From a phage, in NCBI GenBank assembly GCA_025812035.1, contig GCA_025812035.1_4719.1: DNA of 64,000 nucleotides. One strand, given 5' to 3'. The notes under the pieces were generated by a model. It saw only the letters and a program-made list of their open reading frames with translations, made no database searches and was not told the origin of the DNA. Position 1 is the stretch's first letter; every line of letters starts with the position of its first letter. Shown here one piece after another: positions 13,971-38,893 of this stretch. The position numbers were made by a program, and so were the translations under genes.

Positions 13971-14246
13971 TTACGCAGCTTTACAGCTTGCGTAAACCAC
14001 AATCGTTCCGTTGTTGATTGCCTCAACAATTTCCTGGGTCAGTTTGGTCGCTAATTTATTATCCGTCCCCGGTACGTAATAACCTTCTCCTGTTTCAGTG
14101 ATTAAGCGATAACGTACTAATCCCACCGTACGCTCAACGCGTACCACCTTTTCAAGTTTGTGTTTGATGATCTTCGTCAGACTGATTGTATCTGACGTGT
14201 AGATCGCTTTATAAACTTTGTTCTTTGCTGTCGGTTTCATCAACAT
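13971..14246 (-). CDS. hypothetical protein (91 aa)
   Basis: ORF in the array. Confidence 0.5.
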   Translation of the reverse strand: MLMKPTAKNKVYKAIYTSDTISLTKIIKHKLEKVVRVERTVGLVRYRLITETGEGYYVPGTDNKLATKLTQEIVEAINNGTIVVYASCKAA

Positions 14247-16074: not shown

Positions 16075-16333
16075 CTAATTGCTCCCGTTGTTCTTTTAAG
16101 TATGCGGGAAGCTGGTCTTCCCGTACCGTTCCGATTTCTAACATGATGTACCAGCGTTGTTCGGAAGCCTGCCATTGAAAACTGCTCTGTAAACGTAGGA
16201 TGCTAGGATCATGTACCTTGCTTGCGCTGTAACGGTTGAACCAGCCCAGGTAAGCGGCTTTCCCCTCCTCATCGGCAACGTAACGCTGCACGCTGTTCTT
16301 CCCTTTGTTTTCGTATCCTGTTGCATGTATCAT
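16043..16333 (-). CDS. hypothetical small protein (~96 aa)
   Basis: ATG at 16333 overlaps the upstream stop as ATGA. ORF track gives 16043-16390. Confidence 0.5.
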   Translation of the reverse strand: MIHATGYENKGKNSVQRYVADEEGKAAYLGWFNRYSASKVHDPSILRLQSSFQWQASEQRWYIMLEIGTVREDQLPAYLKEQREQLDVLFSHHRGS

Positions 16334-17106
16334 GCGAACGTTTCTCCTGTAACGTGTTGTGGGCGTTGCAGCATGGTAGCATCCCAGCATACCAGCTTGC
16401 TTTTCTCAAGCATCTTCCGCGCCGTATCAACGCTAACGCCAGGATGCATGACAGGTAGCCAACGTTCGTTAAGCACCTTGGCTTCCAGGCGTTGCTTGCG
16501 CTTATTGTATTGTACCTCGCTAACCCATGCGTAACCGAAAGGATGGATAACCCGTGGGTAGTAACGTTTAAGCATCATCAGTCTTTGCTGATAAAGCTTA
16601 TCGGAACCCTCACCAACGAATAAGGCAACCCGTTCCAACCGCTTGGTGTAATACGTTCCGGTGGTATGATTGATCCAACCAGGAAGCGTTCGTACATCAT
16701 TTTCGAGTGTTCCTGATACGTTATGCACTTCACCGCTATACACCGTCCCAACAACCTGATTCGTTGCGTCCACCATCGACCGTGGCAAAGCATCCGCGGT
16801 AGGATACAACCATGCATCCCCAAGCTGCTCTCCCGACGCAAGTACCCGTAATCCGCTTGCGCTCACCCGCAACGGATGCTGGCTCTTATGCGCACGCAAC
16901 TGCACCACAGATAAGTCTACCGGATGGGCGATGCAACAGCCACGCTGACGGAACAGTCCAACCTCACCATCCACCCCTTCGATCATGCTTCCTTCCGAAC
17001 CGTTCCACCAACGTTTAACCTTCACGCATTCGGCTTGCACCGTTTCAGGCAACGTTAAATAATCGTGTTCAATAAACACCACATCAAAAATCAATGCTTC
17101 TTTCAT
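16330..17106 (-). CDS. paralog family H protein C (unknown function)
   Basis: Single HPFGY motif and related C-terminus. SD AGAGGA upstream. Confidence 0.65.
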   Translation of the reverse strand: MKEALIFDVVFIEHDYLTLPETVQAECVKVKRWWNGSEGSMIEGVDGEVGLFRQRGCCIAHPVDLSVVQLRAHKSQHPLRVSASGLRVLASGEQLGDAWLYPTADALPRSMVDATNQVVGTVYSGEVHNVSGTLENDVRTLPGWINHTTGTYYTKRLERVALFVGEGSDKLYQQRLMMLKRYYPRVIHPFGYAWVSEVQYNKRKQRLEAKVLNERWLPVMHPGVSVDTARKMLEKSKLVCWDATMLQRPQHVTGETFA

Positions 17107-17905: not shown

Positions 17906-18799
17906 TTAATCGACAGTGTTATAACCGAATACAGCTTTACCGTAAGTGTGAGTACCGTCGGTTAACGACACCACTAGTACGTGGTTGTATGCGTCGTTAA
18001 CACCCTTGTCAGTAGACCCTGTGGTAGCTCCGTTATAGACAAAGGTAGCTGTTTGCAGGTTGGCTTTCAGCTCGTTAGTGATATCATCGCTGACACCCGT
18101 CTGCTCTTTGATCAGCGTAGTCAGGTTACCTGCCAGGCTTTCACCGATCTTGGTTTCGTTACTGGTGATCGCCTGTAAACCTGTAGTGTAGGAGCTGAAG
18201 TCTAACGGATAGGTTAACAGACGCGCTGAGGTCTTGGTACCATCACCTTCATCAACGTAGGTTAAGTTACCCAGGTTGGTAACCTTGATGATGTTAGACA
18301 GATCCAGCGTTGTGTTATAAACTTTAACTTGAACAGAGCCGTACCACGCCAATGAATCTTCTTTGGCTTCCAGGGTGATCGTCTGGATACCCGATTGCTC
18401 AAAGGTAACCGGCGTAGCTAACGTTTCGGCTTTGATGTCTTTTGCTTTATCCAGGAACTTATCACCAGATGGCGTGATCATACCGTAGCGTTTCGCTACA
18501 AGGTCAACCACATCACCGATGGTGGTGTTCGCATCAACGTTAACACGCACCGCGATCTTCTGGAACCACTTAGCCAGATCCAGACGATGGTAGGTAACAT
18601 CGCGGTTATTGAAGTAAGGAGTACCTTCACCAGGACTGAGTGTTAAAGTTGCTTCTGGAGCAGAAGCGCTTTTAGATTTAAGGACGTATTTAAGGTCGGT
18701 ATATTTAAAGCTGGCACCAGTGTCGGCGTTAAGCTGGTTGATCTCATCAACGATAAGCTGCCATGGTGTTTTTAAAGTAAGCGATACTTGAGCTGTCAT
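17906..18799 (-). CDS. probable abundant virion protein (unknown function)
   Basis: Optimised codon usage and a monocistronic layout. ORF track start at 18832 is TTG; the ATG at 18799 has SD GAGGAAG. Confidence 0.6.
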   Translation of the reverse strand: MTAQVSLTLKTPWQLIVDEINQLNADTGASFKYTDLKYVLKSKSASAPEATLTLSPGEGTPYFNNRDVTYHRLDLAKWFQKIAVRVNVDANTTIGDVVDLVAKRYGMITPSGDKFLDKAKDIKAETLATPVTFEQSGIQTITLEAKEDSLAWYGSVQVKVYNTTLDLSNIIKVTNLGNLTYVDEGDGTKTSARLLTYPLDFSSYTTGLQAITSNETKIGESLAGNLTTLIKEQTGVSDDITNELKANLQTATFVYNGATTGSTDKGVNDAYNHVLVVSLTDGTHTYGKAVFGYNTVD

Positions 18800-18942: not shown

Positions 18943-19485
18943 ATGGCCTTAGACTTTAACAAAGCAGCGAAATCCCTTCTGCTCGATCTCATCAACACCA
19001 AAGCAACCCGCGCACTGTCCGAAGAAGAACTGCAGTTCGGTACTCCGACAGCATCTTCCGAACATGAAAAGAACACCGTTATCCAGCTGAATGCTGCGCC
19101 TGAAGCAGCTAACCTGCAGGGTACCTAGCAGTTCTTCTACAATCGTCTGGCTCTGTCCGAAGTTTTCGCTGACGTAACCGGTGATGTTACTTTCGAACTG
19201 CCGCACGGTACTGACAGCATTCAGGCTTCTGAGCTGGTAAGCAAGCTGGTCACCAAATTCGGTCTGGCTTCCCTGACCGGTGAAATCAATGAAGAAACCT
19301 TCCAGCTGTCTGCGGGTACTGTTGGTCAGGTAACCCTGACTGCGATCGAGGGTGGTATGGTATATACCGGCACTCTGCAGGTTGCACTGACTTATGCAGC
19401 AGCACCAAAAGACGAACTGGCAACCGTTCTGGCGAATAACGTAGCTGAAGGTTTCGAGAAACCGACCGTTAGCGTTGTTGGCTAA
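18943..19485 (+). CDS. highly codon-optimised 181-codon gene interrupted by in-frame amber codon (TAG at 19126-19128)
   Basis: SD GAGGA, ATG at 18943, frame open to the double stop TAATAA at 19483-19488 except for one TAG. No ATG in the 119 codons after the TAG. Confidence 0.6.
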
Positions 19486-20542: not shown

Positions 20543-22591
20543 TCAAATACCTTTGGTTCCCTTCACGTGATGTGCAATTTCTTCAACCATTGCACGCAAC
20601 GCACGAAGCTGCTGGTCGTGTTCGTACCAACCACCCAACAGAACCCCGCTGTACACCATGGTGTCAAGACTTAACAGTCCTTTATCTGATACGTTGATCA
20701 TTTCCGGGAACTGTTCTTGAACACGCTGTGCGATGACACCGATCTTCTCTACATCAGGATCGTAGTTGTGACGGAAACGGGCAAGCCCGCTGCGCGCCAT
20801 TTCACGTAAACGTTCGCTAAGAGATTCCGGATGGTCTTTCAGGTAACGGATGTCATGTTTACTACGCTCATCTGAACGGATGTATGCGTTAGGAACATCG
20901 ATGTTACTGTTGAAGTACAGCGCGCTACCACCACCTGCAGAGTTACCCCAATAGAAGCGTGTGATCTCGCCACCACCATTTTCCGTGATGATAACATGTT
21001 TACCTAAACGCGTGCCACCATTGCCGTCAACGAAGACCAGTTTGTTTCCACTGTAAGAACCCCAGAACAAACGGGTATCGATGATGTGCGTTGCAGCGAG
21101 ACGAGCGTTACGCGGTGTAGAATACACAGTGTTAACATCTTGCTGTGCTTGCGCATCGGAAGCGATACCGTAGTTCTGTACATTACCTAACCCCACCTGC
21201 GCTTTCGTAACAGCGTGTGGGTTATCTCGACGGTTAGCGTGAGCGTTAACCAGATCGCCCGCCAGTTTTTGAATAGCCCAGTTGGTAGACTGTGGTGTCA
21301 TGTAGCGGTTCGTTGCAGAACCACCTTGCGCCTCAGCTTGGTTAGCGGTTGGGTAGTTCTCAACGCTTCCTAACCCCACTTGTGCTTTAGACACTTGGTG
21401 CGGGTTGTTCTTGTCAGCGATGTGTGCATTAAGCGGAACTAACGCAAAGGTCTCGATGGACGCTTTGGTTGTGTTCGGTGCCATTAATCGGTTAGCTGCA
21501 ACACCGGCACGCGCTTCATCCTCAGACGCCATTGGGTAGTCTTGCACGTTACCCAACCCAACCTGCGCTTTGGTTACTCTGTGTGGGTTGTTGTAATCGG
21601 CTTTATGTGCGTTAAGCGGAATCAATGCGAACTGTTCGATCGCTGCAACGGTACGTAGCGGCGTCATGAAACGGTTGTTCGCGGTTCCGCCCTTCGCCTC
21701 GCTATCCGAAGCGGTTGGGAAGTTATCAACGTTCCCAAGGTTAACCTGTGCTTTGGTGACGCTATGCGGGTTATCTTTACGGTTAGCGTGAGCATCGACT
21801 AGGTCACCAGCCAGTTTAGCGATTGCCCATCCAACCGTTTGTGCGGTCATGTATCGGTCGGGTGCGGTACCGGCTTCTGACTCCGCCTTGTTTGCGGTAG
21901 GATAGTTCTGTACATTACCTAACCCAACTTGGGCTTTGGTGGTTTCGTGCGGGTTATCGGTACGGTTAGCATGCGCGTAATGCAGATCGGTAAGATTTTT
22001 ATCCGCTGCTTGCATGTCTTTGCGTAACTGATCGATTGCTGCCCAGAGACGGTTATCGGACGCAGCGTCACCGATAAGTATCGCGGCTTTCAGCGAATAG
22101 ATCGCTAAGCAAAGATGTTCGGTACCGTAGATAGCACTAACGTGGTGGATGTGTGGTTCAGGCGGATAAAGTTCCGGTTTGTTCTTGATATCATCCCAGT
22201 TGATCGGTCGATCGTCAAGTTTGAGTTCTTCGATAGCCTGATATAACGCGTCAATAAGACTTACGTAAACACCACCGATGATACGATAGTCGTTAACTAA
22301 CGTACCCTCGATGTCGTCGTTGATGATGGCGATGGCTGCACAGATTTCTTTACCAGCGTAAAGTGTAGCGTCCTGATACAAGAAGATGGGTTTATAATCC
22401 ACGCCTCGCACCAGTGTCTTACCGGTAAGCTTTTCGGTGATAACCAGACTTTCGGTGAAGAACGGTCCGCCATCGAGGGCGTAACATTTATTCTCGGTTC
22501 GTGGAACGGTATGCTCTTCACCAACGATGTGGTTGCTATCGAGTGTACCGGTCCAGTCCTCGGGGTACTTCAGGGTAATTGGTGTTGACAT
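20543..22591 (-). CDS. tail fibre protein with C-terminal intramolecular chaperone (peptidase S74-like) domain
   Basis: Five or more repeats of NPHxVTKAQVGLGNVxNY. C-terminal SDERSKHDI and IGVIAQRVQEQFPEMI match the self-cleaving chaperone domain of endosialidase-type fibres. Confidence 0.8.
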   Translation of the reverse strand: MSTPITLKYPEDWTGTLDSNHIVGEEHTVPRTENKCYALDGGPFFTESLVITEKLTGKTLVRGVDYKPIFLYQDATLYAGKEICAAIAIINDDIEGTLVNDYRIIGGVYVSLIDALYQAIEELKLDDRPINWDDIKNKPELYPPEPHIHHVSAIYGTEHLCLAIYSLKAAILIGDAASDNRLWAAIDQLRKDMQAADKNLTDLHYAHANRTDNPHETTKAQVGLGNVQNYPTANKAESEAGTAPDRYMTAQTVGWAIAKLAGDLVDAHANRKDNPHSVTKAQVNLGNVDNFPTASDSEAKGGTANNRFMTPLRTVAAIEQFALIPLNAHKADYNNPHRVTKAQVGLGNVQDYPMASEDEARAGVAANRLMAPNTTKASIETFALVPLNAHIADKNNPHQVSKAQVGLGSVENYPTANQAEAQGGSATNRYMTPQSTNWAIQKLAGDLVNAHANRRDNPHAVTKAQVGLGNVQNYGIASDAQAQQDVNTVYSTPRNARLAATHIIDTRLFWGSYSGNKLVFVDGNGGTRLGKHVIITENGGGEITRFYWGNSAGGGSALYFNSNIDVPNAYIRSDERSKHDIRYLKDHPESLSERLREMARSGLARFRHNYDPDVEKIGVIAQRVQEQFPEMINVSDKGLLSLDTMVYSGVLLGGWYEHDQQLRALRAMVEEIAHHVKGTKGI

Positions 22592-26278: not shown

Positions 26279-28432
26279 TTATAACGTCTCGAAGTCTTTT
26301 GCCTTGATGACCGCGTTGAAGTTGGCAAGGAATTCCTTAAGCAATGCTTGGAAAACATCGCGGAACGCCGCGTTCGTCTTCAAGCTGGTTAAATAGTCGT
26401 TCTTAAGGTAATCGCTTAGCTTACCGATCTTCTGCATCTTCACGCCATCATCGTTCTCTCCGGGTTCTTGGCTATTGATATTAGCCCATTTGATCCCTTC
26501 GAGATCACCATCGGCAAGGAAGTTCGCTGGTGTCTCATCATCGTTCAGGATTTTGATCGTATCGCTGGATTCAATACCACCGTAAGCTTCCAGAAGCTGG
26601 TTGATGGCCAACTTATTGACGTTGATTGAACCATTAACACCATCGATACCGATACCAGTACCTGTGATGGATGTCGCCGAAAGATCGATCGGTCCGGTTA
26701 ACTTACCCCCATTGATAGGAAGCGCACCGACTTGCTCGGCAGTGTGGGTGTGGTTGGCTAACGCAGCAAACGCCGCAATCGACTTGTAGGTCGAGTACGG
26801 TGTCATGTATGTCGTCTGGTTAGTCCTGTCGGCAGCTTGCGTGTCGGTGGCAACAGCAAAGTCCTGCACGTTGCTGAGACCGACCTGCGCTTTCGTTACT
26901 CCATGCGGGTTGCTCTTATCGACAACGTGTGCCGCAAAACCGTCACCCGCTAAAGCGATGATTGCTGCTTTTGTCGCAGCTGGTGTCATATAGCGGTTGG
27001 TCGCCACACCTGTTTCTGCTTCCTCATCAGAAGCAACAGGATAGTTCTGTACACTGCCTAACCCAACCTGTGCTTTGGTTACCCTGTGTGGGTTCTCGGT
27101 ATTTGCGATGTGACTACTGAACCCTTGACCAGCCATTTGCTCGATTGCGTAACGAACAAGTATTGGTGTCATGTACTTGTTGTTAACCTGACCGTCGATA
27201 GCTTCTTGGGTAGTAGCAACCCCAAAGTTCTGCACGCTTCCCAGACCGACTTGGGCTTTTGTCACCCCATGCGGGTTATTGGTGTTGCCAATGTGTTCGG
27301 TTACGGTCGGGGTGATTAACGCTGCGATGGCGGCTGCTGTAGTTGCAGGCGTCATGTATTTGTTGTTAGCGACACCGGCACCGGCTTCTACGTTGGATGC
27401 TACACCGTAGTTCTCAACGCTTCCTAACCCCACCTGAGCCTTGGTGACCCCATGTGGGTTGCTTTTGTTTCCGGTGTGGCTTGTCAGCGAAGCATTAACG
27501 TTATCGATACGCGTACTTAAGCCATCAGTGATTGCTTTGATTGCCGCTCGTACGCCCGCAGGAGTCGTGTACAGGTTAGTGGCTGTACCGGTAATGGTTG
27601 TATTACTGTCGGCTACACCGTAGTTCTCGACGTCCCCGAGTCCCACCTGGGCTTTCGTAACCTTGTGTGGGTTGTTGCGGTTGCTGATGTGCGCTGCGGC
27701 ACTATCGCCACTAAGGTTAGCGATCATCTTACGTGTCATCGCCAACGTCATGTACAGATTTTCACCGACGGTTTCCAGATCGTTCTCGGTCGCCGTTGTG
27801 AAGTTCTGCACATTCCCCAACCCCACCTGAGCCTTGGTTACTCCGTGGGGATTATCACGTCGATTCTCATGCTGCACTAACGCAGTCATTGCTTTATTGA
27901 ACCCTTCTTCAAGCGGTTCTTTCAATGACTCGATTGCAGCTACCACATCGTCCCACGTCATCGTGTCGGTTTCGACATTATGTTGGTGGTTGATTGGTGG
28001 GAATACGGAAGGAACGTCAGCAACCTTTTCCCAGAACGTGACACGAGGATCGTAAAGGTTGTTGGCTAAAACGTTAAGAATCTGTTGTTGATCAAGTGTA
28101 AACTCACCCCCCAGTGAATAGTAGTTCAGTTGCAACTGTCCACTGAATGCGGTGTCCAACAGCATGATGGAACCGTATAATTCCAGGCCGGTCAGCGCAG
28201 CCATGGCACGGAAGGGGTGAGTGCATAAAAAGTCAACGCCTTCTTCCAGATACGCGTTTGTTTCAGGGTTGTAGATCCTTAACCCATTACGAAAATATGG
28301 CGCGTATTTAGGAACGAGAAAGTTAAATCCGGTCCCCGTGGAAGGACGGACAGTGACGAGTTCTTCTGGAACCCATGCGCCATCCAAATTCCCCTGCGGG
28401 TTATACGGAAGGCGTTTAATTTCATCTGTCAT
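26279..28432 (-). CDS. tail fibre protein (repeat-containing)
   Basis: Eight or more NPH(G/K)VTKAQVGLG(S/N)V(E/Q)N(Y/F) repeats, homologous to those in 20543-22591. Confidence 0.75.
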   Translation of the reverse strand: MTDEIKRLPYNPQGNLDGAWVPEELVTVRPSTGTGFNFLVPKYAPYFRNGLRIYNPETNAYLEEGVDFLCTHPFRAMAALTGLELYGSIMLLDTAFSGQLQLNYYSLGGEFTLDQQQILNVLANNLYDPRVTFWEKVADVPSVFPPINHQHNVETDTMTWDDVVAAIESLKEPLEEGFNKAMTALVQHENRRDNPHGVTKAQVGLGNVQNFTTATENDLETVGENLYMTLAMTRKMIANLSGDSAAAHISNRNNPHKVTKAQVGLGDVENYGVADSNTTITGTATNLYTTPAGVRAAIKAITDGLSTRIDNVNASLTSHTGNKSNPHGVTKAQVGLGSVENYGVASNVEAGAGVANNKYMTPATTAAAIAALITPTVTEHIGNTNNPHGVTKAQVGLGSVQNFGVATTQEAIDGQVNNKYMTPILVRYAIEQMAGQGFSSHIANTENPHRVTKAQVGLGSVQNYPVASDEEAETGVATNRYMTPAATKAAIIALAGDGFAAHVVDKSNPHGVTKAQVGLSNVQDFAVATDTQAADRTNQTTYMTPYSTYKSIAAFAALANHTHTAEQVGALPINGGKLTGPIDLSATSITGTGIGIDGVNGSINVNKLAINQLLEAYGGIESSDTIKILNDDETPANFLADGDLEGIKWANINSQEPGENDDGVKMQKIGKLSDYLKNDYLTSLKTNAAFRDVFQALLKEFLANFNAVIKAKDFETL

Positions 28433-28536: not shown

Positions 28537-29817
28537 ATGTATACATTGGTAAAAACTTACGGATTACCCGTAGGTTCTGGTACGGCCTGGACAGCACTTG
28601 AGGCGGGTGAAAGTGTCCTGAGTACGTTGTTCTCAACGTATCAAAAACTCAAGATCCAGGTTCATGAAAGTTATGCTGATCAGCAACAAGTTATTGATCT
28701 GTACGCGTTCCAATCCGAGCTTCAAAACAGCAGCGATACGCTTAATGCGTGGCTGAAGGCGAAATCGGACGCACATACTAACCTCCGTGGACAGCCAGGC
28801 GAGCTGTCGATTAAAACACACAAGCTTTATTGCCACGACGTTATTACGGTAGGCTTTCTCCCTAAAGTTGGTAACAGTGGCTATCATCCAAGCAACCCGA
28901 TCCCTGAGTCGGAGCGCACGGATATATTGCTAACAAAAGCGAATACGAACTACGAAAATATCGGCAAGCATTGTTTGTTTACCGTGGGTGGTTATGTTCA
29001 TCCTCACGTTTACGGTAAAGACGTCGGTGTCTATATCCAAGGCGGGTTCAAAACAGCACAACGCAGCCAAGAAAATGATATTGGCATGATTGATTTTAGC
29101 CGTATCGGGAGTTTGGAAATCCATGCCATCACAGAAGAGATGATTGCTGATTCCACGAAGCTCTTGCCGTATAAGGACGAGATGTACTTACGACTACCAC
29201 GCAAGGTAGCTGAAGGTGAGACCGTCGCGTTAGTGTTCGGAGGGTATTTACATCTTCTTGACGATTGTTATACCATCGTTAGTGACACAACAGCGAAAAT
29301 AAACTTCGTTAACATGTTTCTGTACGAAAGATACTTCCGCTCTCGCAAATACCTTGATTTAACATCCCTTGGTATTTTGCTGGATGAAGAAAACCCGCAG
29401 TCCGACATCGTTGCTAACCGCTTATTGTCTGATAAAGTATTGAAAGCGTGGGTTACACACCCTTGCAGTTTCTGGGTGTATATCAAAGCAACATCAATCC
29501 AGGTCACGCAAGAACCTTTACCACGTAGCGGCGTACCAGGACAATATTTCTTAGGTAAGAAACCGGAAGGGCTGATTCGAGCCGATCTTGGCGAGTTACC
29601 GGCTTATGTGCAGACCTATGAAAAACCGTTATGGGTACTTCACTCACGCTGGGGACTTCGTAAGAACATGTTGTTTGAAAACACGCTGTACAAGCATACG
29701 CGTGTTAAGCGACTTAACGATACGCCTTATCTTCATCAGGTTTGGTTGGAAACGCATGCGACGTTGCAGACAGTGCACAAGCTCGAATTGATCGATTCCA
29801 GCCAGAAAAACAAATAA
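28537..29817 (+). CDS. hypothetical protein (426 aa)
   Basis: SD AAGGGGG and TAA stop, followed by a family hairpin. Confidence 0.6.
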   Translation: MYTLVKTYGLPVGSGTAWTALEAGESVLSTLFSTYQKLKIQVHESYADQQQVIDLYAFQSELQNSSDTLNAWLKAKSDAHTNLRGQPGELSIKTHKLYCHDVITVGFLPKVGNSGYHPSNPIPESERTDILLTKANTNYENIGKHCLFTVGGYVHPHVYGKDVGVYIQGGFKTAQRSQENDIGMIDFSRIGSLEIHAITEEMIADSTKLLPYKDEMYLRLPRKVAEGETVALVFGGYLHLLDDCYTIVSDTTAKINFVNMFLYERYFRSRKYLDLTSLGILLDEENPQSDIVANRLLSDKVLKAWVTHPCSFWVYIKATSIQVTQEPLPRSGVPGQYFLGKKPEGLIRADLGELPAYVQTYEKPLWVLHSRWGLRKNMLFENTLYKHTRVKRLNDTPYLHQVWLETHATLQTVHKLELIDSSQKNK

Positions 29818-29827
29818 ACGAACATAA

Positions 29828-29859
29828 CCCTCCTCCAACCCGTAAGGGAAGGAGGAGGG
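29828..29859. terminator. conserved two-tier GC hairpin (family copy 6)
   Basis: CCCTCCTCC-AACCCGTAAGGGAA-GGAGGAGGG at a convergent junction. Confidence 0.55.
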
Positions 29860-29868
29860 AATATGTTG

Positions 29869-30774
29869 TTATGCTGCGTATAACGTCAGATAACCTTCGA
29901 TGAGCGTATTCATCACACTGAGTTGGAGCACGACAGCTTTACTAACATCTGTACGTACACCGAATGGCAGTGCTTTGAATTGCTCTGGATCGGTTATTAC
30001 TTTCGCATTCTGTAAGTTGAGTGGTCCAGGTATTGCTGACAATACCCAGAGATCGTCCGTCGTAAGGTCGTCGATCTCTTCAGAGAGACCTAATTGCAAC
30101 GCGTTCATTTCCGCAATCAGTGCTTCCGATCGCGTATCACCTGAGGTTAACGTATACCCATCAGTGAGCGACGCTAGGACACCAGCTGACACGAACCAGT
30201 TGTACGAAACAATAGCACCTGGGAGTTTATCGCTATCTCGATCGATGAGATAATTCAGCCCAGCCAACATATTGTTGCGAATGAGGTTGTTAAGGTCGTT
30301 ATGTCCTGAAGTTAACTCAACAAGTAATTCACCAACCCATACTTGGTTACTGGGTTTAGGTGTTATCGCAATATGTATCGGTGATTTGGACTTATCCAGA
30401 TTCGCGTCGACGATTTCGGTTTTGTCGAGAAGGATGCCGTACGTTGATGCCAGGACAGGCAGTATCTCAGAAACCTTGGTTAACGCATCTAAGGTTTCGA
30501 TCTCGACAGGCCAGCGATGCTGTCCACCAGACCAAATACCCAGTTTGCCAAGATCGATGCGGTTATAATAGATGTCGACAGAGTTCACCAGCCCTGAACC
30601 AGGCTGGGGATGCACGGTTAACTTACTATTACGTTTGTACCCGGTACTTTCAGAAGCCTCACCGATAATCAGTTTATCCAGCGTCACGCCTCGAGCATCG
30701 AAATCGCTATGTTTTCGAATCAAACGAAAGAGAATTTCTTTCGATTCTAACCCCAGGATTTCACTGTACTCCAT
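29869..30774 (-). CDS. virion-module protein, paralog family V (member 1)
   Basis: YYNRIDLGKL motif shared with 31691-32542 and 32553-33488. Confidence 0.55.
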   Translation of the reverse strand: MEYSEILGLESKEILFRLIRKHSDFDARGVTLDKLIIGEASESTGYKRNSKLTVHPQPGSGLVNSVDIYYNRIDLGKLGIWSGGQHRWPVEIETLDALTKVSEILPVLASTYGILLDKTEIVDANLDKSKSPIHIAITPKPSNQVWVGELLVELTSGHNDLNNLIRNNMLAGLNYLIDRDSDKLPGAIVSYNWFVSAGVLASLTDGYTLTSGDTRSEALIAEMNALQLGLSEEIDDLTTDDLWVLSAIPGPLNLQNAKVITDPEQFKALPFGVRTDVSKAVVLQLSVMNTLIEGYLTLYAA

Positions 30775-30789
30775 TTAACACCCCTTAGG

Positions 30790-31674
30790 TTACGGTAGGA
30801 TTTCCGCGCCCGTCGGGCCTGCCTTACGGGCTTCCAACGCACCAAGGTCGTATTTCAGTGTCAGTGTATCGTTGGTGGTAAATAGGTTGTGATAAGTCGA
30901 AATCAAATCGGTAACTTGCGCACCTACGATTTCGTTCATGTCGAAGGTAGAACCTTGACCATCATCAGCACGAACGATTTTATCGCTGGCGGAGACGATC
31001 CCAATTTCAGAAATAACCGCGTACTCTTCACCACCTTCGGTGAGTTTCGCCACATTGAGGTATTCGTTAATATCCCACGGCGTCCAAACCAAAGATACTT
31101 TACAGCTATAATCGTAATACTCTCCGGTCGCTACCAGAATTCCGGTTGTTGGAATATCCGGTCGAGGTGGGTTGAGGTTCGCGTCGGTTGGGTGCCATTC
31201 GATGGTCTGAGCAACACCGTCGATGTACTTGGTATAACGCATGGAGCGGACAACGTTATCGAAATCAATACGGCGACCGTAATAACAGATGTATTTTTTA
31301 CCGCTTTCCAGTGTCTCAATACGACGTAATCCAAATTTAGCACGTTCGTCCGTGGTCAAATCGTTACCAATTTCACGCATCACGAAAGGTTTGATTTTCC
31401 AAGGTGAAAGATCGCTTGCTTCGTGAGCGATCGGCATCGAGGAAGGGATACCGTTAGCGTTGCGGATGAATTCGTGCCCTTGGTTGCCGATACAGAAGTA
31501 ACGTACCGCAGGATTACCCTCAGGGTAAATCTTTGATTGAATCTGAAGCTTTTCATTCAAGGTGCTATGTTCTTCCCATGCATGAGGAAGACCGAGCGTA
31601 AGGTTGGTTTGTACTTGACCGCCGATAATCGTACGGACGATACGATCGGTAGCACGGATTTGTGTAGAAGCCAT
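30790..31674 (-). CDS. hypothetical structural-module protein (294 aa)
   Basis: ORF between paralogs. Confidence 0.55.
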   Translation of the reverse strand: MASTQIRATDRIVRTIIGGQVQTNLTLGLPHAWEEHSTLNEKLQIQSKIYPEGNPAVRYFCIGNQGHEFIRNANGIPSSMPIAHEASDLSPWKIKPFVMREIGNDLTTDERAKFGLRRIETLESGKKYICYYGRRIDFDNVVRSMRYTKYIDGVAQTIEWHPTDANLNPPRPDIPTTGILVATGEYYDYSCKVSLVWTPWDINEYLNVAKLTEGGEEYAVISEIGIVSASDKIVRADDGQGSTFDMNEIVGAQVTDLISTYHNLFTTNDTLTLKYDLGALEARKAGPTGAEILP

Positions 31675-31690
31675 GTCTTTTCCTATTTAA

Positions 31691-32542
31691 TCAGTTATAT
31701 TGCATCAACAGGATACCGCCGTAGTTCGTGCAGTAATCTTGGCTAAGCGTAACGATAACAGCGTTAGCGAACGCAGGGTTAACAGGATAACCCTGTGCGA
31801 TAAGCTCTGTTGTTTTACCGGTTGCGAGTACGGTGGCCCCGTAAAGGTTGTTTTCGTCTTCACGACCGTTATAAACCCATGGGCTCGGTGCAACATTGTT
31901 GAATAAGCTAACCAACGCGCTTAGGTTACCACCAACTTTTAACCCAGCAAGATCGGAACGGATAGCTGTGCAGTCTATAGCGTAACTGTAGACCAACGCC
32001 TGGATACGGTTTGCGGTGTAGTACGGGAAATTGAGACCAGCCATCACAGTGGTCTTCATCATTCCCGCAATATCGCGTGCGCCATCGAGGAGATAGAACG
32101 TAACGCTCCCCGTCCAAGCCAATCCGGTTGTTTTCAATTCTACGACGTGCGGGAACGGGTACGTATCTCCTCGCACAATCGGAGAATCGACACAACTATC
32201 CTGATCGATAACGATTCCGTACGTTGATTGGATCAGAGGGATAAGGTCATGTGTTGTTTTAACGCCAGCATCGATAGCGAGCTTCGGTTCCATCCCCAAG
32301 AAGAAGTCTTGGATAGGAATACGGTCGTACCATACGTAGCTGCTTTCGCGATACAACGCTGGTGTGACTGTTGCTGAAGGTGATACCTTAGCACGAGTAT
32401 TTCGGTTATACGCATGGTTTCCGTTTTCAGCAACATCCGTGATATCAAGCGCGTCGAAGTTAAAGTCGAAGTCAGGATTGGCGGCCTGAATAAGCTCGGC
32501 GACCAGTACTTTAGGACTTTTGTTTAACAATTTCTGACTCAT
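31691..32542 (-). CDS. virion-module protein, paralog family V (member 2)
   Basis: VWYDRIPIQ, LAWTGSV and QDYCTNYGG motifs shared with 32553-33488. Confidence 0.55.
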   Translation of the reverse strand: MSQKLLNKSPKVLVAELIQAANPDFDFNFDALDITDVAENGNHAYNRNTRAKVSPSATVTPALYRESSYVWYDRIPIQDFFLGMEPKLAIDAGVKTTHDLIPLIQSTYGIVIDQDSCVDSPIVRGDTYPFPHVVELKTTGLAWTGSVTFYLLDGARDIAGMMKTTVMAGLNFPYYTANRIQALVYSYAIDCTAIRSDLAGLKVGGNLSALVSLFNNVAPSPWVYNGREDENNLYGATVLATGKTTELIAQGYPVNPAFANAVIVTLSQDYCTNYGGILLMQYN

Positions 32543-32552
32543 TGTTTATTCC

Positions 32553-33488
32553 TTAGCCTTGTTCTTCAGGAGAACGACCCTGGAGGCTTGCGGTATGTCC
32601 GTCGACATTGTAATAGAAAATCAATGGACCACCGACAGCAGTGCAGTAGTTTTCATCCAGACCGATTTCGATACCGTATTGGTAACCAGCTCGTGCTGGA
32701 ATGCGCCCGCCTAATTCACCGTTGAAATCCACTCTAGCGTTATACAAGTTGTACGGTGCTGTGTTGTCGTCGAGTACCCAACGATCGGCAGTCATTTCAG
32801 CCAGAAGATCGGCGACCATCACATCACTAATAACGGTACCCGTTACCAGCGAAGCCAACAATTCGCCGTAATTAGACGTATCGCGACTGTAACTATAGAT
32901 CTCACCGCTAGCACGTACACCTTGCCCGAAGAACTTAAGACCGTCCAGCTCTTTGATCGCGATAATATCATCAAGATTCGGTACACGCGATTTCATCAAG
33001 ATGCGAACGCTCCCCGTCCAAGCCAGACAGTTAGATACGACACGAAGCAACTGCCCGTTAACGGTATCCCAGTTAAGTTCGTCATTGACGATTTCTTCGG
33101 CGGTAAGACCAAGACCGAAACGTTCCTTGATGATAGGCCAGATATCACGCATCTTGGTGGCGTCTGGCGCATCAATAAGAATAGGTGCTACGTTACGCAG
33201 ATATGCACCGATGTTAATACGATCGTAATACAGCGTCGTTGAACCTTCATAATCGTCTAACTCGGTAAGCTTAGCGGTTGCCGTTGCTGTAATCTGGGTG
33301 TCGCGCTCGTAGGCGCTTTGGTTGGTGGTTGGTGTTCCTAAAACCAATAATTCAGGTGTTAGAACATGTTCTCCGTTCTGAGGTGGGTTATCATGGTTGA
33401 TAAGACCATACACGAGATCGGATGAGGGTAAAGAGACGTCGACCGGGTAAAGTTCGGTGTCGTCAATAGTTGTTACCGTATCACTCAC
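32553..33488 (-). CDS. virion-module protein, paralog family V (member 3)
   Basis: LYYDRINIG, LAWTGSV and DENYCTAVGG. Confidence 0.55.
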   Translation of the reverse strand: MSDTVTTIDDTELYPVDVSLPSSDLVYGLINHDNPPQNGEHVLTPELLVLGTPTTNQSAYERDTQITATATAKLTELDDYEGSTTLYYDRINIGAYLRNVAPILIDAPDATKMRDIWPIIKERFGLGLTAEEIVNDELNWDTVNGQLLRVVSNCLAWTGSVRILMKSRVPNLDDIIAIKELDGLKFFGQGVRASGEIYSYSRDTSNYGELLASLVTGTVISDVMVADLLAEMTADRWVLDDNTAPYNLYNARVDFNGELGGRIPARAGYQYGIEIGLDENYCTAVGGPLIFYYNVDGHTASLQGRSPEEQG

Positions 33489-33547: not shown

Positions 33548-35959
33548 TTAAGCGTCCTTGGTAGGCAAAGGTTTAACAATCAAACGATTGAGCGTATTCG
33601 ATAAACGCATGCCAATAGGCTTGTACGCAACATGATTCGTTTCACTTAGAACCGCGGATTTGAAACGACCATTCAACTGTTTGTAAATCGGCTCTATCCA
33701 GAGACCCTGAAGATCACGTTTACGGAAACGTTGCTCAAACGGTTTGATTGGGTTTACGGTCAGACCATGCAACGATTCTGATAGCAGACGTTCACGAAGA
33801 TCACGCGGTGCTCTACCTGGGAACGGTGCAAGCCACAACCCGTTGAGCGGGTTTTTACGGAAACGCAACGAGACAGGATCGGTAATAACTTGCGCCCAAT
33901 ATTGCGTACTGAATCGTACGGTTTGAGTATTCTCGTAACCGCTACAATCACACCAGGTTGGTTTTGGAGGCGCTTCCAAACTTTCAACCGCCGATTCACG
34001 CCAGTTCGTCATCGGGTTGTTATCGTGTACGAATTTGATAACTTCCGTAGCCTGGTTATCCGTATCATGAACGCATGCTTGTGCCCAGTCCTCCCACAGT
34101 TCTTCACTACCGCTTACTAAACTCGAACCAAGACGGATGGCAATTTTGTTCAGCGGTTTGATAGGATCGCTGTTGATTGTCTGGATAAAATGGATGGTGT
34201 AACTACTCAATGTCTTGAGCAATTGCAACATTCCGTATTGAATATCCTTAAGGCTGGTGACATCTTCCAAGTCTTGACCGGTGGCCTTTGTGAAGATATC
34301 GAGAGCCAGAATTCCCGCCTCTTCTTGACTGATTGCGTCAAGCTCCCAATCCATCGCTAAGAACCATTCCTTGTAAAGCTGTCCAATACCGAAGTCGACA
34401 CCAACATCCATGTAGAAATTCTCAACGATCGCTTCAGCCATACCTCGAGCTTGATAATGCTCTTGGAGCTGATACATGAATTGATGGCGACGCCAGCCCT
34501 GGTAGATCTCGGTAACGACGTTGAGAAACTCTTCAGTACTGACGACCGGACGCAATGTTACTTGCTTATCTAAACACCACCAGATCAGTTTATCGGGAAT
34601 GATAACAGGATCGGTAATACTGCGGAGATGGTCGAATGTCGGTAACGTTAACACCCGGACATGATTGGCATGTATCTTAGGTACTTCAATCAGCGTCATG
34701 CCCATCGAATAGTTCAGCAAATACAAGAACAGCTTGTAGGCATCTTTCATCGACATCGTCATGGTATCACCCGTCACCGGGTTGGTTGTCGTCAACCGTG
34801 ACTGATACATGCCTATCGCGCTAAGATGGATCCACTCATTCAGCAGGAAATCATACTTAGGATACAATTCACTGTCTGTAAGGTCTTCTGCTTCACTTTC
34901 CAATACCTTGGTCGTTAAGGTATTGTTGTCGTGCATCGACATCTTCTCTATCGTGCGGTTAAGCTCGGTATAATACTCTGCTTCGTTATCCCGCGCTAAA
35001 GGGAACTGTTGCTGCATGACGGTGGTGACCTTACGTCTAACCGTACCGTTGCCGACGATCTCTTGAAGGTTCAGCGGTTTACGCTCCATGTAAACGGTAG
35101 GTTTTAACGTCTGAGGTATCTCGGAAGCGTCTTGTTTGATTGAGAACGCACCGATTGGAATTCCACGATCGGTTAATACCTTTTGAATGAGCTTATCGTA
35201 GTTTTCCGTTCTACCCATGTTTCTTTCAACGTAAGCGATGTTACGATAGAACCAGAGCATCTGGGATTCCGTCATGTATCGCTCGAATCGATCAAGACCC
35301 TGATGGCTTGCCAGATAACTCCAGATATGGAAGCTATGGGCATAATGGGTATGACAGTTTTCCCAACGAATACCTTTTATCATCTCAGGTATTTGTGTGA
35401 ATAGAATGGCGTATAACGCAGGCCAATGAAGCATATCGACGCTTTCATACGCCGGATGTTCCCAACGTCTAAAGTAATCGTCGATTTCCTGCTGTAATCG
35501 CGGGATAAGGTTGGCCTCGCGTGACTCAACCTCTCGTGTATCGTACCAGAGAATCTCATGATTGCGAGCCGCAATTGCTTTCTCGATATCGATGGGGTTA
35601 AGGATACCCAAAATCAACATACGTTGTTCTGGGTACCGCGCAATTAAACGATTGAAATAATCTCCGCCGTACGCGTATTCTCTTGCGGTCATGCGATGCC
35701 GTAGCATGTTTTCCTTGGTGAACTCGATCTCCTCGAGCGTATCCAGGGAATTTACGGTCATCATTGTCTGACAAGGATGATACTCGCCAGCGAGATTCAT
35801 GTAGTATAACCACGTGCGTGGGTCGTCCCCGACGGCCATCTGGTAGACTTCGGAAACCTTGAGGTTTAACCGTTCTGCCGTGATGTCACTTTTAATAATC
35901 AGGGTGTCCGTTAGACGCTGCACGCTTTCCGAATAAAGCTGATAGTCAGTGTTGGACAC
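33548..35959 (-). CDS. large hypothetical protein (~800 aa) with C-terminal internal repeat
   Basis: ORF track start at 36028 overlaps the divergent gene. A GTG at about 35959 has SD GGAGGA. C-terminal FRK..L.GLW repeat. Confidence 0.55.
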   Translation of the reverse strand: MSNTDYQLYSESVQRLTDTLIIKSDITAERLNLKVSEVYQMAVGDDPRTWLYYMNLAGEYHPCQTMMTVNSLDTLEEIEFTKENMLRHRMTAREYAYGGDYFNRLIARYPEQRMLILGILNPIDIEKAIAARNHEILWYDTREVESREANLIPRLQQEIDDYFRRWEHPAYESVDMLHWPALYAILFTQIPEMIKGIRWENCHTHYAHSFHIWSYLASHQGLDRFERYMTESQMLWFYRNIAYVERNMGRTENYDKLIQKVLTDRGIPIGAFSIKQDASEIPQTLKPTVYMERKPLNLQEIVGNGTVRRKVTTVMQQQFPLARDNEAEYYTELNRTIEKMSMHDNNTLTTKVLESEAEDLTDSELYPKYDFLLNEWIHLSAIGMYQSRLTTTNPVTGDTMTMSMKDAYKLFLYLLNYSMGMTLIEVPKIHANHVRVLTLPTFDHLRSITDPVIIPDKLIWWCLDKQVTLRPVVSTEEFLNVVTEIYQGWRRHQFMYQLQEHYQARGMAEAIVENFYMDVGVDFGIGQLYKEWFLAMDWELDAISQEEAGILALDIFTKATGQDLEDVTSLKDIQYGMLQLLKTLSSYTIHFIQTINSDPIKPLNKIAIRLGSSLVSGSEELWEDWAQACVHDTDNQATEVIKFVHDNNPMTNWRESAVESLEAPPKPTWCDCSGYENTQTVRFSTQYWAQVITDPVSLRFRKNPLNGLWLAPFPGRAPRDLRERLLSESLHGLTVNPIKPFEQRFRKRDLQGLWIEPIYKQLNGRFKSAVLSETNHVAYKPIGMRLSNTLNRLIVKPLPTKDA

Positions 35960-35986
35960 GATCGGTCCTCCAAGGAGCCAGTGTAA

Positions 35987-38893
35987 ATGAACGATATAAA
36001 TAAAGGGCGCGTCGCCCTCGAACGTCAAATGAGCAATAATGACGTTGCGAAGGCACTCATGAACAAATTTGTCGCTCCTGCCCCGCAGTCACGTCTTTAT
36101 AATACACGTGAGGCGGAAGGAGGGAACGGTCGTTTCGGGTTAGTTGTTCCCGACCAGATGACGATGAACACGGTTACGCGTGCGACAGCGACAAACATCG
36201 AGGATAATAAAAACATTCTCGAGTTGTTCCCTGAACTTAAACGCGTGATGCAGATCTATGTTGCCGCGTTGACGAACCCTAACGATCTTAAGACGGTCGA
36301 GATGTTTATCGATAGCGAAGATTTCCCCGGCAGAGTCGCAGAAATCGTTCAGCCGATGATCGATACCATCGACACGCATTTTAAGAATATCTATAAAATA
36401 AAGACGCTTATCCCTCGTATCATCGAAGACGTCTTCTTTATCAAGGGTAGTTATAACTTCGTTGTTCTGCCCGAAAGTACGCTCGATCGTGCTATTAACG
36501 GTAACGGCCAACTGAAACTTGAAGAATACGGATTCAGAGATAACCATTTTGCAAGTTGGGGGCTTTTAGGTAACGATAGTCGCAAGCGTCAAGAAAACCA
36601 ACTGCCCGCGACGGTTTCGATGGAAGATTATTTCTCAGGCGTTAACGAAACCTTATCGTACGATCCGGTTGTTCGTATAGACAGCATTAAGTTTACCAAT
36701 ACCCTGCTTCGTGATAAGGATGGTAAATTCATTGAAGCGAAGATCGATATTCCGGATATGGTTACGGTTGTCGATAACCCGGATATCCTCCGCATGCCCA
36801 TTTTGCATCAGCGTCGAGCAGCGACAGCGGTGCAACGTGCGTTACGTGCAAACACATTAGGAGGTAGTGGTCTGGTAACGCTGTCTGGTGATCCGACTCA
36901 AACCGCAAACCGGCGTGAGCTGACGCAAGAACAGGTTAACGAGATCTGGAATAAACTCAACATCCAGCGTCATACCAAGGTATCTCCCGTTTACGCGTTG
37001 GCAACCCCAGATACGCTTGACCGTCAAAGCGTTGGTCACCCCGGCGTGATGCATGTACCGCCTGAGGCATTAGAACCAGTACATGCGCCAGGTGATCCGG
37101 AGAACCATATCGGGTATTTAGTTCAGTTGGATGAGTTTGGTTATCCGGTGCGTTTGGTTGAAGATGCGGCGTATTACAAGCAGTTGGAAGGTCGGTTGTC
37201 GAAGATCACCGCGGATATCGCAGGTACTTCAAGCAATGGCATGGCGAGCGAGATGATTGGTGCGGCCAAGAACATGGTCCAAGGTACGTCATGTAATCAG
37301 GTAGACATGTCGGCCTTCGTATCATCGTACGAATCACTGATGCAACGCTACATCGTTGAACGTATTGTCAACGGTTATCTAGGTAGTGCAGTGGAGATCG
37401 GTGCGACATCATCGTTTTACCTATCGATGCTTGCTCGTAGTCTCGCCCACAAGCAGACTCGTGTTTTGTTTATTCCTCGAGAGATGGTTACATACATCGC
37501 TTATGAATACAACAAATACGGTATCGGCCGTTCGTTGCTTGAAAGCACGAAGATGATCTCGTCACAACGCGCCATGCTCATGGTTCAGGAACTGATGGCG
37601 AAAATCAAGAGTTCGTTGAACTACACAACGCTAAGTGTAATGCTTGAAGACACCGACAGAAACCCGGTCGATACCGTCGAACAAGCGTTACATAGCTTCG
37701 CTCGTGTTTACCAGTCTGGTTTCCCACTGGGTGAAACTAACCCAATGGATATCATCAATGCGTACGAACGAAGCTCGATTCGATTGAAGGTCGAGGGGAA
37801 TAACCCACGTTTCCCGAAATTGAATACCGATGTTAGCGTCGAGCAGCGTAACTATCAGTCCCCTGATAATGAATTGATGGATCGTTACCGTCGTGACCAT
37901 TTCATGGGTCTGGGTGTTTCTCCAGAGATCGTTGATACTTCTTACCAATCTGAATTCGCAGCTTCTGTGATTACAGCTAACGCGATGCAAGAGAAACAGT
38001 TCACGGTTTGTCGTGAGGTTATCGTGAATGGGTTAACCGATCACATCAAGAAGTACACGGCTTACAGTCCTGTACTGCTGACGTCGCTGCGAAACACGGT
38101 TCGTGCGAACATGTCTAAGCTCTCCCAAGCACAATTGAAGCAGCTTTTTGGTAGCGATTTCGAAAACGGTGTCATTCGTAACGTTAACGCTTACCAGGAG
38201 ATCGATGACCAGTCAGCAACGATGGATCTGGATTACTCTAAACCAGAAGTTCAGGAAGTTATTGCCGATGCTTACGTATCCATGTTCTTAAACAGTCTGC
38301 AGGTACGTTTACCGGATAGCAATGCTCGCCGCCTTGAAGATCAGGTGCGGGAATATAATCAGTACAAGGAAGCGATTACCGCACAACTTGATGATTATTT
38401 AACGCCTGATTACGTTATGGGTCTGGGTGGAGTCGATGAAACAACATTGCAGATGATTCGTGCGTGCATTATCGGTACTGCAATGCGTACTTGGGCAAAA
38501 GAGAACAACTTCAATCAGGAGTTAGCGGATCTCTTCAGTCTCGATGATAAGAAGAATGCCGTGCAAGATTGGAAACGTGCATCCATGGAACATATCGAAA
38601 TCATGGGTAAATGCATGGGTGATTTTGCACTGTATATTCAGAATCTGACGAAGAAGATTGAAGAGAAGATGGGAGATCAAGCGCAGGACGGTAGCGTTTC
38701 ATCTGATGGCTCTTGGTCGTCTGATTCAAGTAGCGATACAGGTTCTTCTGATGACTTCGGTGGTGATGATTTCGGGGATACCGATTTCGATACCGAAACG
38801 GTGGAGGAAACCTCAACAGAGGAGACAACTACGTCTGAGGATACGACTACCGACACAACGTCGGAAGACGAGACTTCAGGTGATATTGTCTAA
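35987..38893 (+). CDS. large protein (968 aa) with acidic Ser/Thr/Asp-rich C-terminal tail
   Basis: SD AAGGAG and a long ORF. The last ~70 aa are low-complexity, S/D/T/E-rich. Confidence 0.65.
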   Translation: MNDINKGRVALERQMSNNDVAKALMNKFVAPAPQSRLYNTREAEGGNGRFGLVVPDQMTMNTVTRATATNIEDNKNILELFPELKRVMQIYVAALTNPNDLKTVEMFIDSEDFPGRVAEIVQPMIDTIDTHFKNIYKIKTLIPRIIEDVFFIKGSYNFVVLPESTLDRAINGNGQLKLEEYGFRDNHFASWGLLGNDSRKRQENQLPATVSMEDYFSGVNETLSYDPVVRIDSIKFTNTLLRDKDGKFIEAKIDIPDMVTVVDNPDILRMPILHQRRAATAVQRALRANTLGGSGLVTLSGDPTQTANRRELTQEQVNEIWNKLNIQRHTKVSPVYALATPDTLDRQSVGHPGVMHVPPEALEPVHAPGDPENHIGYLVQLDEFGYPVRLVEDAAYYKQLEGRLSKITADIAGTSSNGMASEMIGAAKNMVQGTSCNQVDMSAFVSSYESLMQRYIVERIVNGYLGSAVEIGATSSFYLSMLARSLAHKQTRVLFIPREMVTYIAYEYNKYGIGRSLLESTKMISSQRAMLMVQELMAKIKSSLNYTTLSVMLEDTDRNPVDTVEQALHSFARVYQSGFPLGETNPMDIINAYERSSIRLKVEGNNPRFPKLNTDVSVEQRNYQSPDNELMDRYRRDHFMGLGVSPEIVDTSYQSEFAASVITANAMQEKQFTVCREVIVNGLTDHIKKYTAYSPVLLTSLRNTVRANMSKLSQAQLKQLFGSDFENGVIRNVNAYQEIDDQSATMDLDYSKPEVQEVIADAYVSMFLNSLQVRLPDSNARRLEDQVREYNQYKEAITAQLDDYLTPDYVMGLGGVDETTLQMIRACIIGTAMRTWAKENNFNQELADLFSLDDKKNAVQDWKRASMEHIEIMGKCMGDFALYIQNLTKKIEEKMGDQAQDGSVSSDGSWSSDSSSDTGSSDDFGGDDFGDTDFDTETVEETSTEETTTSEDTTTDTTSEDETSGDIV

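Follow-up and report, generated by a model that had tools for sequence, protein, structure and literature searches.

What are the three similar genes at positions 29869-33488 of this phage DNA, which stand on either side of a fourth gene that does not resemble them, and where on the virion do their products sit? The DNA is a stretch of 64,000 nucleotides (nt), hereafter the window, from contig GCA_025812035.1_4719.1 of GenBank assembly GCA_025812035.1. An initial annotation, made from the sequence alone, had described these genes as paralogs in the structural block of a large or jumbo myovirus, with an unrelated gene interposed, and had considered their products as components of the baseplate or the inner body. 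The combined results presented here establish that the three genes are anciently diverged DUF7941 paralogs of the nucleus-forming jumbo phages (Chimalliviridae), with orthologs named gp31, gp33 and gp34 in Escherichia phage Goslar.

Three homologous genes for virion proteins

The three open reading frames (ORFs) were found where the annotation had put them and encode proteins of 301, 283 and 311 amino acids (aa), which we name after their Goslar orthologs gp31, gp33 and gp34, respectively (Table 1). The GTG start codon of the 311-aa ORF agrees with the Goslar annotation. Formal alignment by BLASTP confirmed homology in every pair, with 25% identity in each case: the gp31 and gp33 orthologs aligned over 179 aa (E-value, E, 7e-12), the gp33 and gp34 orthologs over 247 aa (E 2e-18), and the gp31 and gp34 orthologs over 279 aa (E 3e-11). 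All three proteins also match the Pfam profile PF25613 (DUF7941) over its full length, from position 2-3 to position 274-275 of 276, with the scores given in Table 1 compared to a gathering threshold of 27 bits, and all three match PHROG 1037, 'virion structural protein'. The pairwise E-values and the full-length Pfam matches rule out chance similarity, and the identity of the three ORFs as DUF7941 virion-protein paralogs is near-certain.

The sequence motifs by which the annotation had linked the three proteins are genuine signatures of the DUF7941 family. The motif (Y/W)Y(N/D)RI(D/P/N)(L/I) occurs in each protein, as YYNRIDL, WYDRIPI and YYDRINI, and LAWTGSV is found in two of the three, both as described. 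The description of (D/Q)(E/D)NYCT..GG held in part: the gp34 ortholog has an exact copy (DENYCTAVGG), the gp33 ortholog has a loose version (SQDYCTNYGG), and the motif is missing from the gp31 ortholog, which is the most divergent of the three and carries an acidic insertion in its C-terminal domain (CTD). Across 106 diverse members, conservation reaches 87-95% at Y88 and R90 (YYDR), G159 (LAWTG), and G287 (YCT..GG).

Compared to Goslar, the window shows 92.9% nt identity, and its three proteins are 91.7, 96.8 and 98.1% identical in aa sequence to gp31, gp33 and gp34, respectively, with equal order, strand and lengths; the interposed protein is 96.9% identical to Goslar gp32. The phage of the window is distinct from Goslar (~93% nt), with an amber codon in its gp23 ortholog and ~2 kb of extra genes upstream, whereas the three proteins themselves show no difference in kind from gp31, gp33 and gp34, having in common with them the Pfam family and an architecture of N-terminal domain (NTD), linker and CTD. 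A Goslar preprint lists gp31, gp33 and gp34 among ten DUF7941 proteins (bioRxiv 10.64898/2026.04.21.720040). Tandem mass spectrometry after liquid chromatography (LC-MS/MS) of purified Goslar virions detected gp31 by 7 peptides (~8.5 copies per virion, range 5.6-13), gp33 by 13 peptides (~112 copies, 75-176, the most of the three) and gp34 by 11 peptides (~27 copies, 18-43), the copy numbers being label-free quantification estimates good to +/-50% (10.64898/2026.04.21.720040, Table S4). The detection of orthologs that are 92-98% identical in purified virions bears out the earlier claim that the three are virion proteins. The DUF7941 paralogy of the three genes is therefore correct and not new, since it has been published for these Goslar orthologs, which were named, modelled and quantified in the 2026 preprint, and the family is curated in Pfam.

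The paralogs diverge from Goslar at unequal rates. The ratio of aa-changing to synonymous codon differences was 6/53 for the gp34 ortholog, 9/55 for the gp33 ortholog and 25/57 for the gp31 ortholog, compared to 9/42 for the interposed gp32 ortholog.

Table 1. Coordinates of the DUF7941 genes and neighbouring features in the window.
Feature	Position	Strand	Length (aa)	Evidence
DUF7941 paralog, gp31 ortholog	29869-30774	minus	301	Pfam PF25613, E 4.1e-54, 184.4 bits
DUF7941 paralog, gp33 ortholog	31691-32542	minus	283	Pfam PF25613, E 7.6e-48, 163.8 bits
DUF7941 paralog, gp34 ortholog, GTG start	32553-33488	minus	311	Pfam PF25613, E 1.2e-62, 212.4 bits
Spoke protein of the baseplate (DUF7208), orthologous to Goslar gp32 and phiKZ gp139	30790-31674	minus	294	Pfam PF23838, E 2.9e-95
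Baseplate wedge protein, ortholog of Goslar gp35 and phiKZ gp128, first operon gene	33548-35959	minus	803	PDB 11lx_Bh, E 0
phiKZ gp130 homolog, Goslar gp30 ortholog, convergent with the paralog operon	28537-29817	plus	426	PDB 9xqd_L PHIKZ130, E 3e-26
Hairpin rich in G+C (CCCTCCTCC..GGAGGAGGG), flanked by the converging gp30 and gp31 orthologs	29828-29859	.		Sequence reading
Fourth full-length DUF7941 paralog, Goslar gp22 ortholog	17906-18799	minus		Three-paralog profile, E 4e-19; Pfam, E 2e-51
DUF7941 gene of NTD plus linker only, Goslar gp23 ortholog, interrupted	18943-19485	plus		Alignment with Goslar

Domain architecture and genomic setting

The AlphaFold2 model of the gp34 ortholog (predicted local distance difference test score, pLDDT, 82) comprises an NTD at about residues 13-170, a linker at 171-189 (pLDDT 42-51) and a CTD at 190-297, and that of the gp31 ortholog (pLDDT 74) an NTD at 1-156, a linker at 157-191 and a CTD at 192-301. 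Searching PDB with Foldseek gave a sole match at E <= 1e-3 for both models, chain 0 of 9xqd (E 1.4e-5 and template modelling, TM, score 0.67 for the gp34 ortholog; E 4.3e-5 and TM 0.62 for the gp31 ortholog). This chain is the NTD (residues 1-150) of phiKZ gp127, the only solved member of DUF7941. Among predicted viral structures, Foldseek gave 86 matches at E <= 1e-3, and the named ones were jumbo-phage virion proteins, including some annotated as tail fibre or tail protein. Matches of the gp31-ortholog model to HPPD/glyoxalase folds were noise (Foldseek E 0.02-1, root-mean-square deviation >20 Å), and sequence matches to TAL-effector and cadherin proteins were short, of low complexity and insignificant. 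An origin of NTD and CTD by internal duplication was likewise ruled out (HHalign probability 2.6%).

phiKZ gp127 has the NTD fold and the family in common with the window proteins at merely ~20-23% identity. By BLASTP, the closest window protein to gp127 was the gp22 ortholog (E 5e-12), followed by the gp33 ortholog (E 4e-7) and the gp34 ortholog (E 2e-4), and the gp33 ortholog also gave a weak full-length phmmer match to PHIKZ127 in 9xqd (E 0.031). A profile of the three paralogs matched no PDB sequence; kinship with gp127 is therefore based on Foldseek, BLASTP, a local hidden Markov model and Pfam.

The linker has a pLDDT of about 30-50 in the monomer models and yet matches the folded domains in conservation (0.343, versus 0.312 and 0.353 for the folded domains and 0.05-0.14 for the disordered termini), and the 13 positions of DUF7941 with the highest conservation in the 106 members include L172 and L181. 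Conservation of a segment that is unstructured in the monomer is expected for a motif that folds upon partner binding, and as far as these models go the linker fits intermolecular docking.

The gene interposed between the paralogs was correctly called unrelated: it encodes the spoke protein and belongs to DUF7208 (PF23838), a family other than PF25613, and BLASTP found no similarity between it and the three proteins. It is near-identical to chains of PDB 11lx, 11pb and 36za (E 3e-198) and matches PHIKZ139 in 9xpg/9xqd (E 4e-42). The spoke gene is a single-copy core chimallivirus gene, occupying one place per record in all 264 phage records that have it. DUF7941 occurs in several copies per genome, at 526 places in 123 records, each of them from a jumbo phage of 210-307 kb.

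The wedge, gp34, gp33, spoke and gp31 genes follow one another on the minus strand with intergenic gaps of 10-59 nt. This tight co-oriented run, which includes the wedge and spoke genes and is ended by a strong hairpin (Table 1), marks the locus as an operon for the baseplate periphery. The hairpin is likely a bidirectional terminator that closes the operon; a simple terminator scan missed it, and the Goslar annotation has a terminator at the homologous position. A scan for sigma-70 promoters gave 6 matches versus 12.6 in shuffled sequence, fewer than expected. Goslar-type phages transcribe with their own RNA polymerases, which makes such a scan uninformative.

The setting in a structural block of a jumbo myovirus was upheld by the wedge, spoke, portal and gp130-like genes that adjoin the paralogs. 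phiKZ gp130 is described as a connector of the outer-baseplate star lobes and a fibre docking site (phiKZ atlas, PMC13250141). The divergent 968-aa gene beyond the wedge gene is the portal gene by PDB sequence search, and the wedge (minus) and portal (plus) starts stand back to back with only ~27 bp between them (35959-35987). The wedge ORF, when extended mechanically, reaches a TTG at 36028 and would overlap the portal start. Since the solved Goslar chain 11lx_Bh (803 aa) aligns to residues 25-826 of this ORF, so that it begins at residue 25, the shorter annotated start is favoured and is probably right; the wedge protein also matches PHIKZ128 in 9xqs (E 6e-110).

The gene order extends beyond Goslar. 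Erwinia phage Deimos-Minion / RAY (Agricanvirus) has the identical arrangement, with the portal gene on the opposite strand followed by wedge, DUF7941, DUF7941, spoke and DUF7941. Reciprocal best hits linked gp34 with Deimos-Minion gp8 (E 8e-40), gp33 with gp9 (E 1.4e-20) and gp32 with gp10 (E 1.6e-54). Identity is 33% or less, and the pair gp31/gp11 is weak (E 2e-5), gp11 being closer to the gp22 ortholog. The common order implies that the triplication predates the split of the genera and that each copy has been retained. Wedge followed by DUF7941 is also preserved in phiKZ and SPN3US. The SPN3US locus has wedge gp82, DUF7941 gp83 and spoke gp84 in order, and the phiKZ locus has wedge gp128 followed by the two DUF7941 genes gp127 and gp126 (147 aa), with the spoke gene gp139 moved elsewhere. 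The gene for phiKZ gp127 thus lies immediately downstream of the wedge gene, as does that for the gp34 ortholog. The one-to-one orthology of gp34 and gp127 is positional only, since sequence similarity ranks gp22 before gp33 and gp34 and leaves gp31 unmatched. Assignments of phiKZ gp126, gp127 and gp143 likewise differ by approach: synteny points to gp34 and gp33, similarity to gp22, gp33 and gp34, and stoichiometry (6 per virion) fits gp31 best.

An exhaustive HMMER search gave 1,277 DUF7941 clusters at 50% identity, including NTD-only, tandem and fusion forms, and in other phages the NTD is joined to a GP38 tail-fibre adhesin domain; a word-indexed homolog search returned few orthologs, mostly gp22-like sequences. 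DUF7941 is also reported in secreted Spaid-like proteins of Spiroplasma (InterPro; PMC13375240), so the family may not be exclusive to chimalliviruses.

Placement on the baseplate or on the head

On balance, we consider it probable that the three proteins sit on the peripheral baseplate as subunits of head-to-tail adaptors or filaments. The NTD of one member would dock on the outermost spoke dimer, as phiKZ gp127 does, with the gp34 type as the positional ortholog, and the linker and CTD of each subunit would bind the NTD of the next, head to tail. As paralogs of low to moderate copy number, the three would act as adaptors or primers that tie the gp22 and gp23 filament subunits, and fusions with receptor-binding domains, to the virion, and the chain would serve host recognition. 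We infer the attachment site, the order of the chain and the role in host recognition, and head-to-tail binding among the three proteins is putative. For DUF7941 proteins, AlphaFold 3 (AF3) predictions in the Goslar preprint dock a protomer's linker and CTD on the NTD of the next, head to tail (10.64898/2026.04.21.720040). In the same work, purified gp22, at ~580 copies per virion, assembled into filaments in vitro, a gp126-gp127 dimer was fitted into unexplained phiKZ density, and a baseplate-anchored 'fibre cloud' for host recognition was proposed (10.64898/2026.04.21.720040). In the window, the adaptor reading is supported by the paralogy, the family, the domain architecture, the conserved linker, the fold match to gp127, the operon and the synteny, and the NTD-adhesin fusions of other phages also speak for it. 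Support from the literature comes from the Goslar orthologs in virions and the gp22 filaments (10.64898/2026.04.21.720040), and from the position of the gp127 NTD in the phiKZ atlas, where a band of five gp139 dimers ends at gp127 and each star lobe has a single copy of gp127 (PMC13250141).

Several observations weigh against a baseplate location. The gp31 ortholog showed no similarity to phiKZ gp127 by BLASTP, the estimated copy numbers (~8, ~112 and ~27) do not match one subunit per spoke, and phiKZ gp127 itself is an AlphaFold model docked into a 4.4 Å map in which only the NTD was modelled (PMC13250141). The Goslar baseplate map showed no DUF7941 density (10.64898/2026.04.21.720040). The most direct conflict comes from SPN3US, where heads of a tail-tube amber mutant, after double CsCl purification, were compared to wild-type (WT) virions as normalised head/WT ratios (PMC10052503, Table S2). 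The DUF7941 proteins were retained (gp83, 1.20; gp138-154, 1.06-1.67; gp160, 1.23), as was the major capsid protein gp75 (1.39), whereas wedge gp82 (0.018), spoke gp84 (0.056) and the gp130 homolog gp171 (0.011) were lost (PMC10052503).

The proteins concerned are the SPN3US 'Paralog family B' (gp83, gp138-154, gp160/161 and gp237), which had been assigned to the head from their presence in tailless particles (PMC5105663, PMC5694885). Pfam identifies the array of this family as DUF7941, with seven full-length members (E 1e-65 to 1e-87) and NTD-only fusions. Against the array of SPFM4, which is 98.5% identical to SPN3US, BLASTP aligned the gp33 ortholog with SPFM4_00124 (E 8e-21) and the gp31 ortholog with SPFM4_00125 (E 4e-12), and gave E 4e-16 for the gp34 ortholog. 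All SPN3US members are confirmed as virion proteins by mass spectrometry. SPN3US differs from the window in that the family has expanded to about 20 members, most of which form a single tandem array distant from the baseplate genes, and in that experiments placed them on the head, not the baseplate. Beside the array, a 725-aa protein (NC_027402 133169-135346) combines a DUF7941 NTD (E 2e-23) with a GP38 adhesin domain (PF05268, E 7e-18); the adhesin-fused gp155 was kept on tailless heads (head/WT 0.89), which sharpens the paradox of head versus baseplate. Retention of most DUF7941 proteins without wedge and spoke implies that their association with the particle is independent of the baseplate in SPN3US. 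The baseplate location of the family is thus contested, and because of this conflict we hold our confidence in baseplate adaptors at a moderate level. The conflict could be reconciled if location differed between paralogs, if the head or neck offered extra sites of attachment, or if long filaments became entangled with heads.

These data could also be explained if the three paralogs, like most of the SPN3US members, were external flexible fibres of the capsid or neck, invisible to single-particle cryo-electron microscopy (cryo-EM), and their linkage to wedge and spoke reflected late co-expression only. Retention on tailless heads extended to 20/21 SPN3US family members, including gp83, while baseplate proteins were down 20-100 fold (PMC10052503), and tailless 64_112(am27), an independent mutant, behaved in the same way (PMC5105663, PMC5694885). 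The lack of DUF7941 density at the Goslar baseplate agrees with such a location, and the Goslar preprint makes no mention of SPN3US and so does not discuss those data (10.64898/2026.04.21.720040). Set against this, the modelled NTD of phiKZ gp127 lies at the spoke's distal end, and the models of the gp34 and gp31 orthologs both match gp127. No DUF7941 protein was assigned to the Goslar capsid, for which the preprint has a high-resolution model. Moreover, SPN3US gp237 was the sole family member to behave as a tail protein (head/WT 0.06; PMC10052503), which suggests that location may vary by paralog, and co-purification with heads could result from the entanglement of long, self-assembling filaments. 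Taken together, we regard a head or neck location for the three proteins as possible but unlikely.

Alternatively, the three proteins could be static bricks of fixed stoichiometry in the unresolved 'star lobes' of the outer baseplate, which neither polymerise nor anchor filaments. Their low to moderate copy numbers, compared to ~580 for gp22 and ~2140 for gp23, would suit this explanation, as would the single gp127 per lobe in phiKZ, the large part of the peripheral baseplate that is unmodelled in both Goslar and phiKZ, and the strong conservation of gp33 and gp34, which is similar to that of the spoke gp32. The linker, conserved though unstructured in the monomer, fits intermolecular docking instead, AF3 modelling predicts that gp126 and gp127 pair head to tail, along with a network of pairings between DUF7941 proteins (10.64898/2026.04.21.720040), and ~112 copies of gp33 far exceed one per spoke. 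We consider static bricks improbable.

As to the two locations named by the initial annotation, the baseplate gains support from phiKZ gp127 in 9xqd and the wedge/spoke operon, contested as it is by SPN3US, and the inner body was rejected. An inner-body or ejected internal head protein is very improbable even though SPN3US members are found with purified heads and a tentative label of ejection protein was given to the abundant ones, gp141 and gp160 having once been flagged 'Head ejection?'. None of the three matched the inner-body family PF12699 at E <= 0.1, and the PF12699 proteins of Goslar are gp53-gp58 (10.64898/2026.04.21.720040). Some family members are joined with adhesin, carbohydrate-binding, glycoside hydrolase or LRR domains, which make sense only outside the capsid, and gp127 was seen in the baseplate (PMC13250141). 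The SPN3US paper of 2023 gives the number of processed head proteins as nine and, in the text covered, does not report Paralog B among those cleaved (PMC10052503). The inner-body proteins of phiKZ (PF12699: gp93, gp95, gp97 etc.) are likewise a paralog set of chimallivirus virion proteins, and differ in being an unrelated family that is internal, proteolytically processed and ejected.

Further paralogs in the window and significance of the family

The set of three is incomplete, as the window also holds orthologs of the DUF7941 proteins gp22 and gp23 (Table 1). The gp22 ortholog is 87.9% identical to Goslar gp22 and evolves much faster than the three paralogs, with 36/41 aa-changing to synonymous codon differences compared to 6/53 for gp34. 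Goslar gp23 matches the Pfam DUF7941 profile with E 7e-20 and is the most abundant DUF7941 protein of the virion, at ~2140 copies (10.64898/2026.04.21.720040). Its ortholog in the window has an in-frame TAG at 19126-19128 (codon 62), where Goslar has CAG, in a frame that is otherwise intact. CAG (Gln) also stands at this codon in two further Goslar-like contigs, among them the independent sequence IMG/VR UViG_3300045988_173921. Logan contig SRR22004794_286 includes the TAG; over 3.5 kb it shows 100% identity to the window and probably represents the same phage, and is therefore no independent confirmation. Nonsynonymous to synonymous codon differences were 8/6 before the TAG and 14/15 after it, the gene being fast-evolving throughout.

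Recoding of TAG to Gln was ruled out, as TAG ends 3/44 long ORFs, including that of the RuvC ortholog. There was no in-frame TAG in any other conserved gene of the window and no tRNA gene in the window. The use of TAG as a normal stop and the lack of a tRNA gene in the window point to a nonsense mutation or a sequencing error. Unless it is such an error, the gp23 amber would make this phage either a natural knock-out or a mutant that depends on a suppressor. A supE host, which inserts Gln, would restore the ancestral residue.

Other paralog sets were observed in the window. The ~2 kb that megablast left unaligned to Goslar encodes a pair of proteins of ~297 aa each (14209-15102 and 15184-16074, both minus), with 35% identity (E 1e-44) and no Pfam match, which show a weak relationship (E 7e-5) to the neighbouring Goslar gp021 ortholog; the gene at 16330-17106 (minus) belongs to the same region. 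The pair suggests a second expansion of a gene family, specific to this lineage. The structural block of the three paralogs also includes the orthologs of Goslar gp25 and gp29 (20543-22591 and 26279-28432, both minus), a pair of large fibre-like paralogs. They have in common an N-terminal region and a repeat of ~45 aa that occurs many times and includes NPHxVTKAQVGLGxVxNY, and one of them has a weak match to Peptidase_S74 (intramolecular chaperone).

On the question of where DUF7941 proteins sit, cryo-EM of phiKZ and Goslar (peripheral baseplate) and proteomics of tailless SPN3US mutants (head) have given opposite answers, with no mutual citation on the point. A more speculative and, in our estimate, quite unlikely idea is that DUF7941 forms a virion-wide coat of flexible adhesin filaments whose anchoring is not confined to the baseplate, in which the paralogs would be site-specific anchors, with gp34 proximal on the spoke, gp33 as an extender and the fast-evolving gp31 distal, and that the phage of the window is a natural gp23 knock-out. 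If true, such a coat would account both for gp127 at the tip of the spoke and for the SPN3US family being kept on tailless heads, and the knock-out would show directly whether the 'fibre cloud' is dispensable. The location of DUF7941 bears on how jumbo phages find their hosts and on the engineering of host range, because the family can reach thousands of copies per virion and includes fusions to adhesins and glycosidases. The three genes studied here are the best candidates for the anchoring step, since they are the members most tightly linked to baseplate genes.

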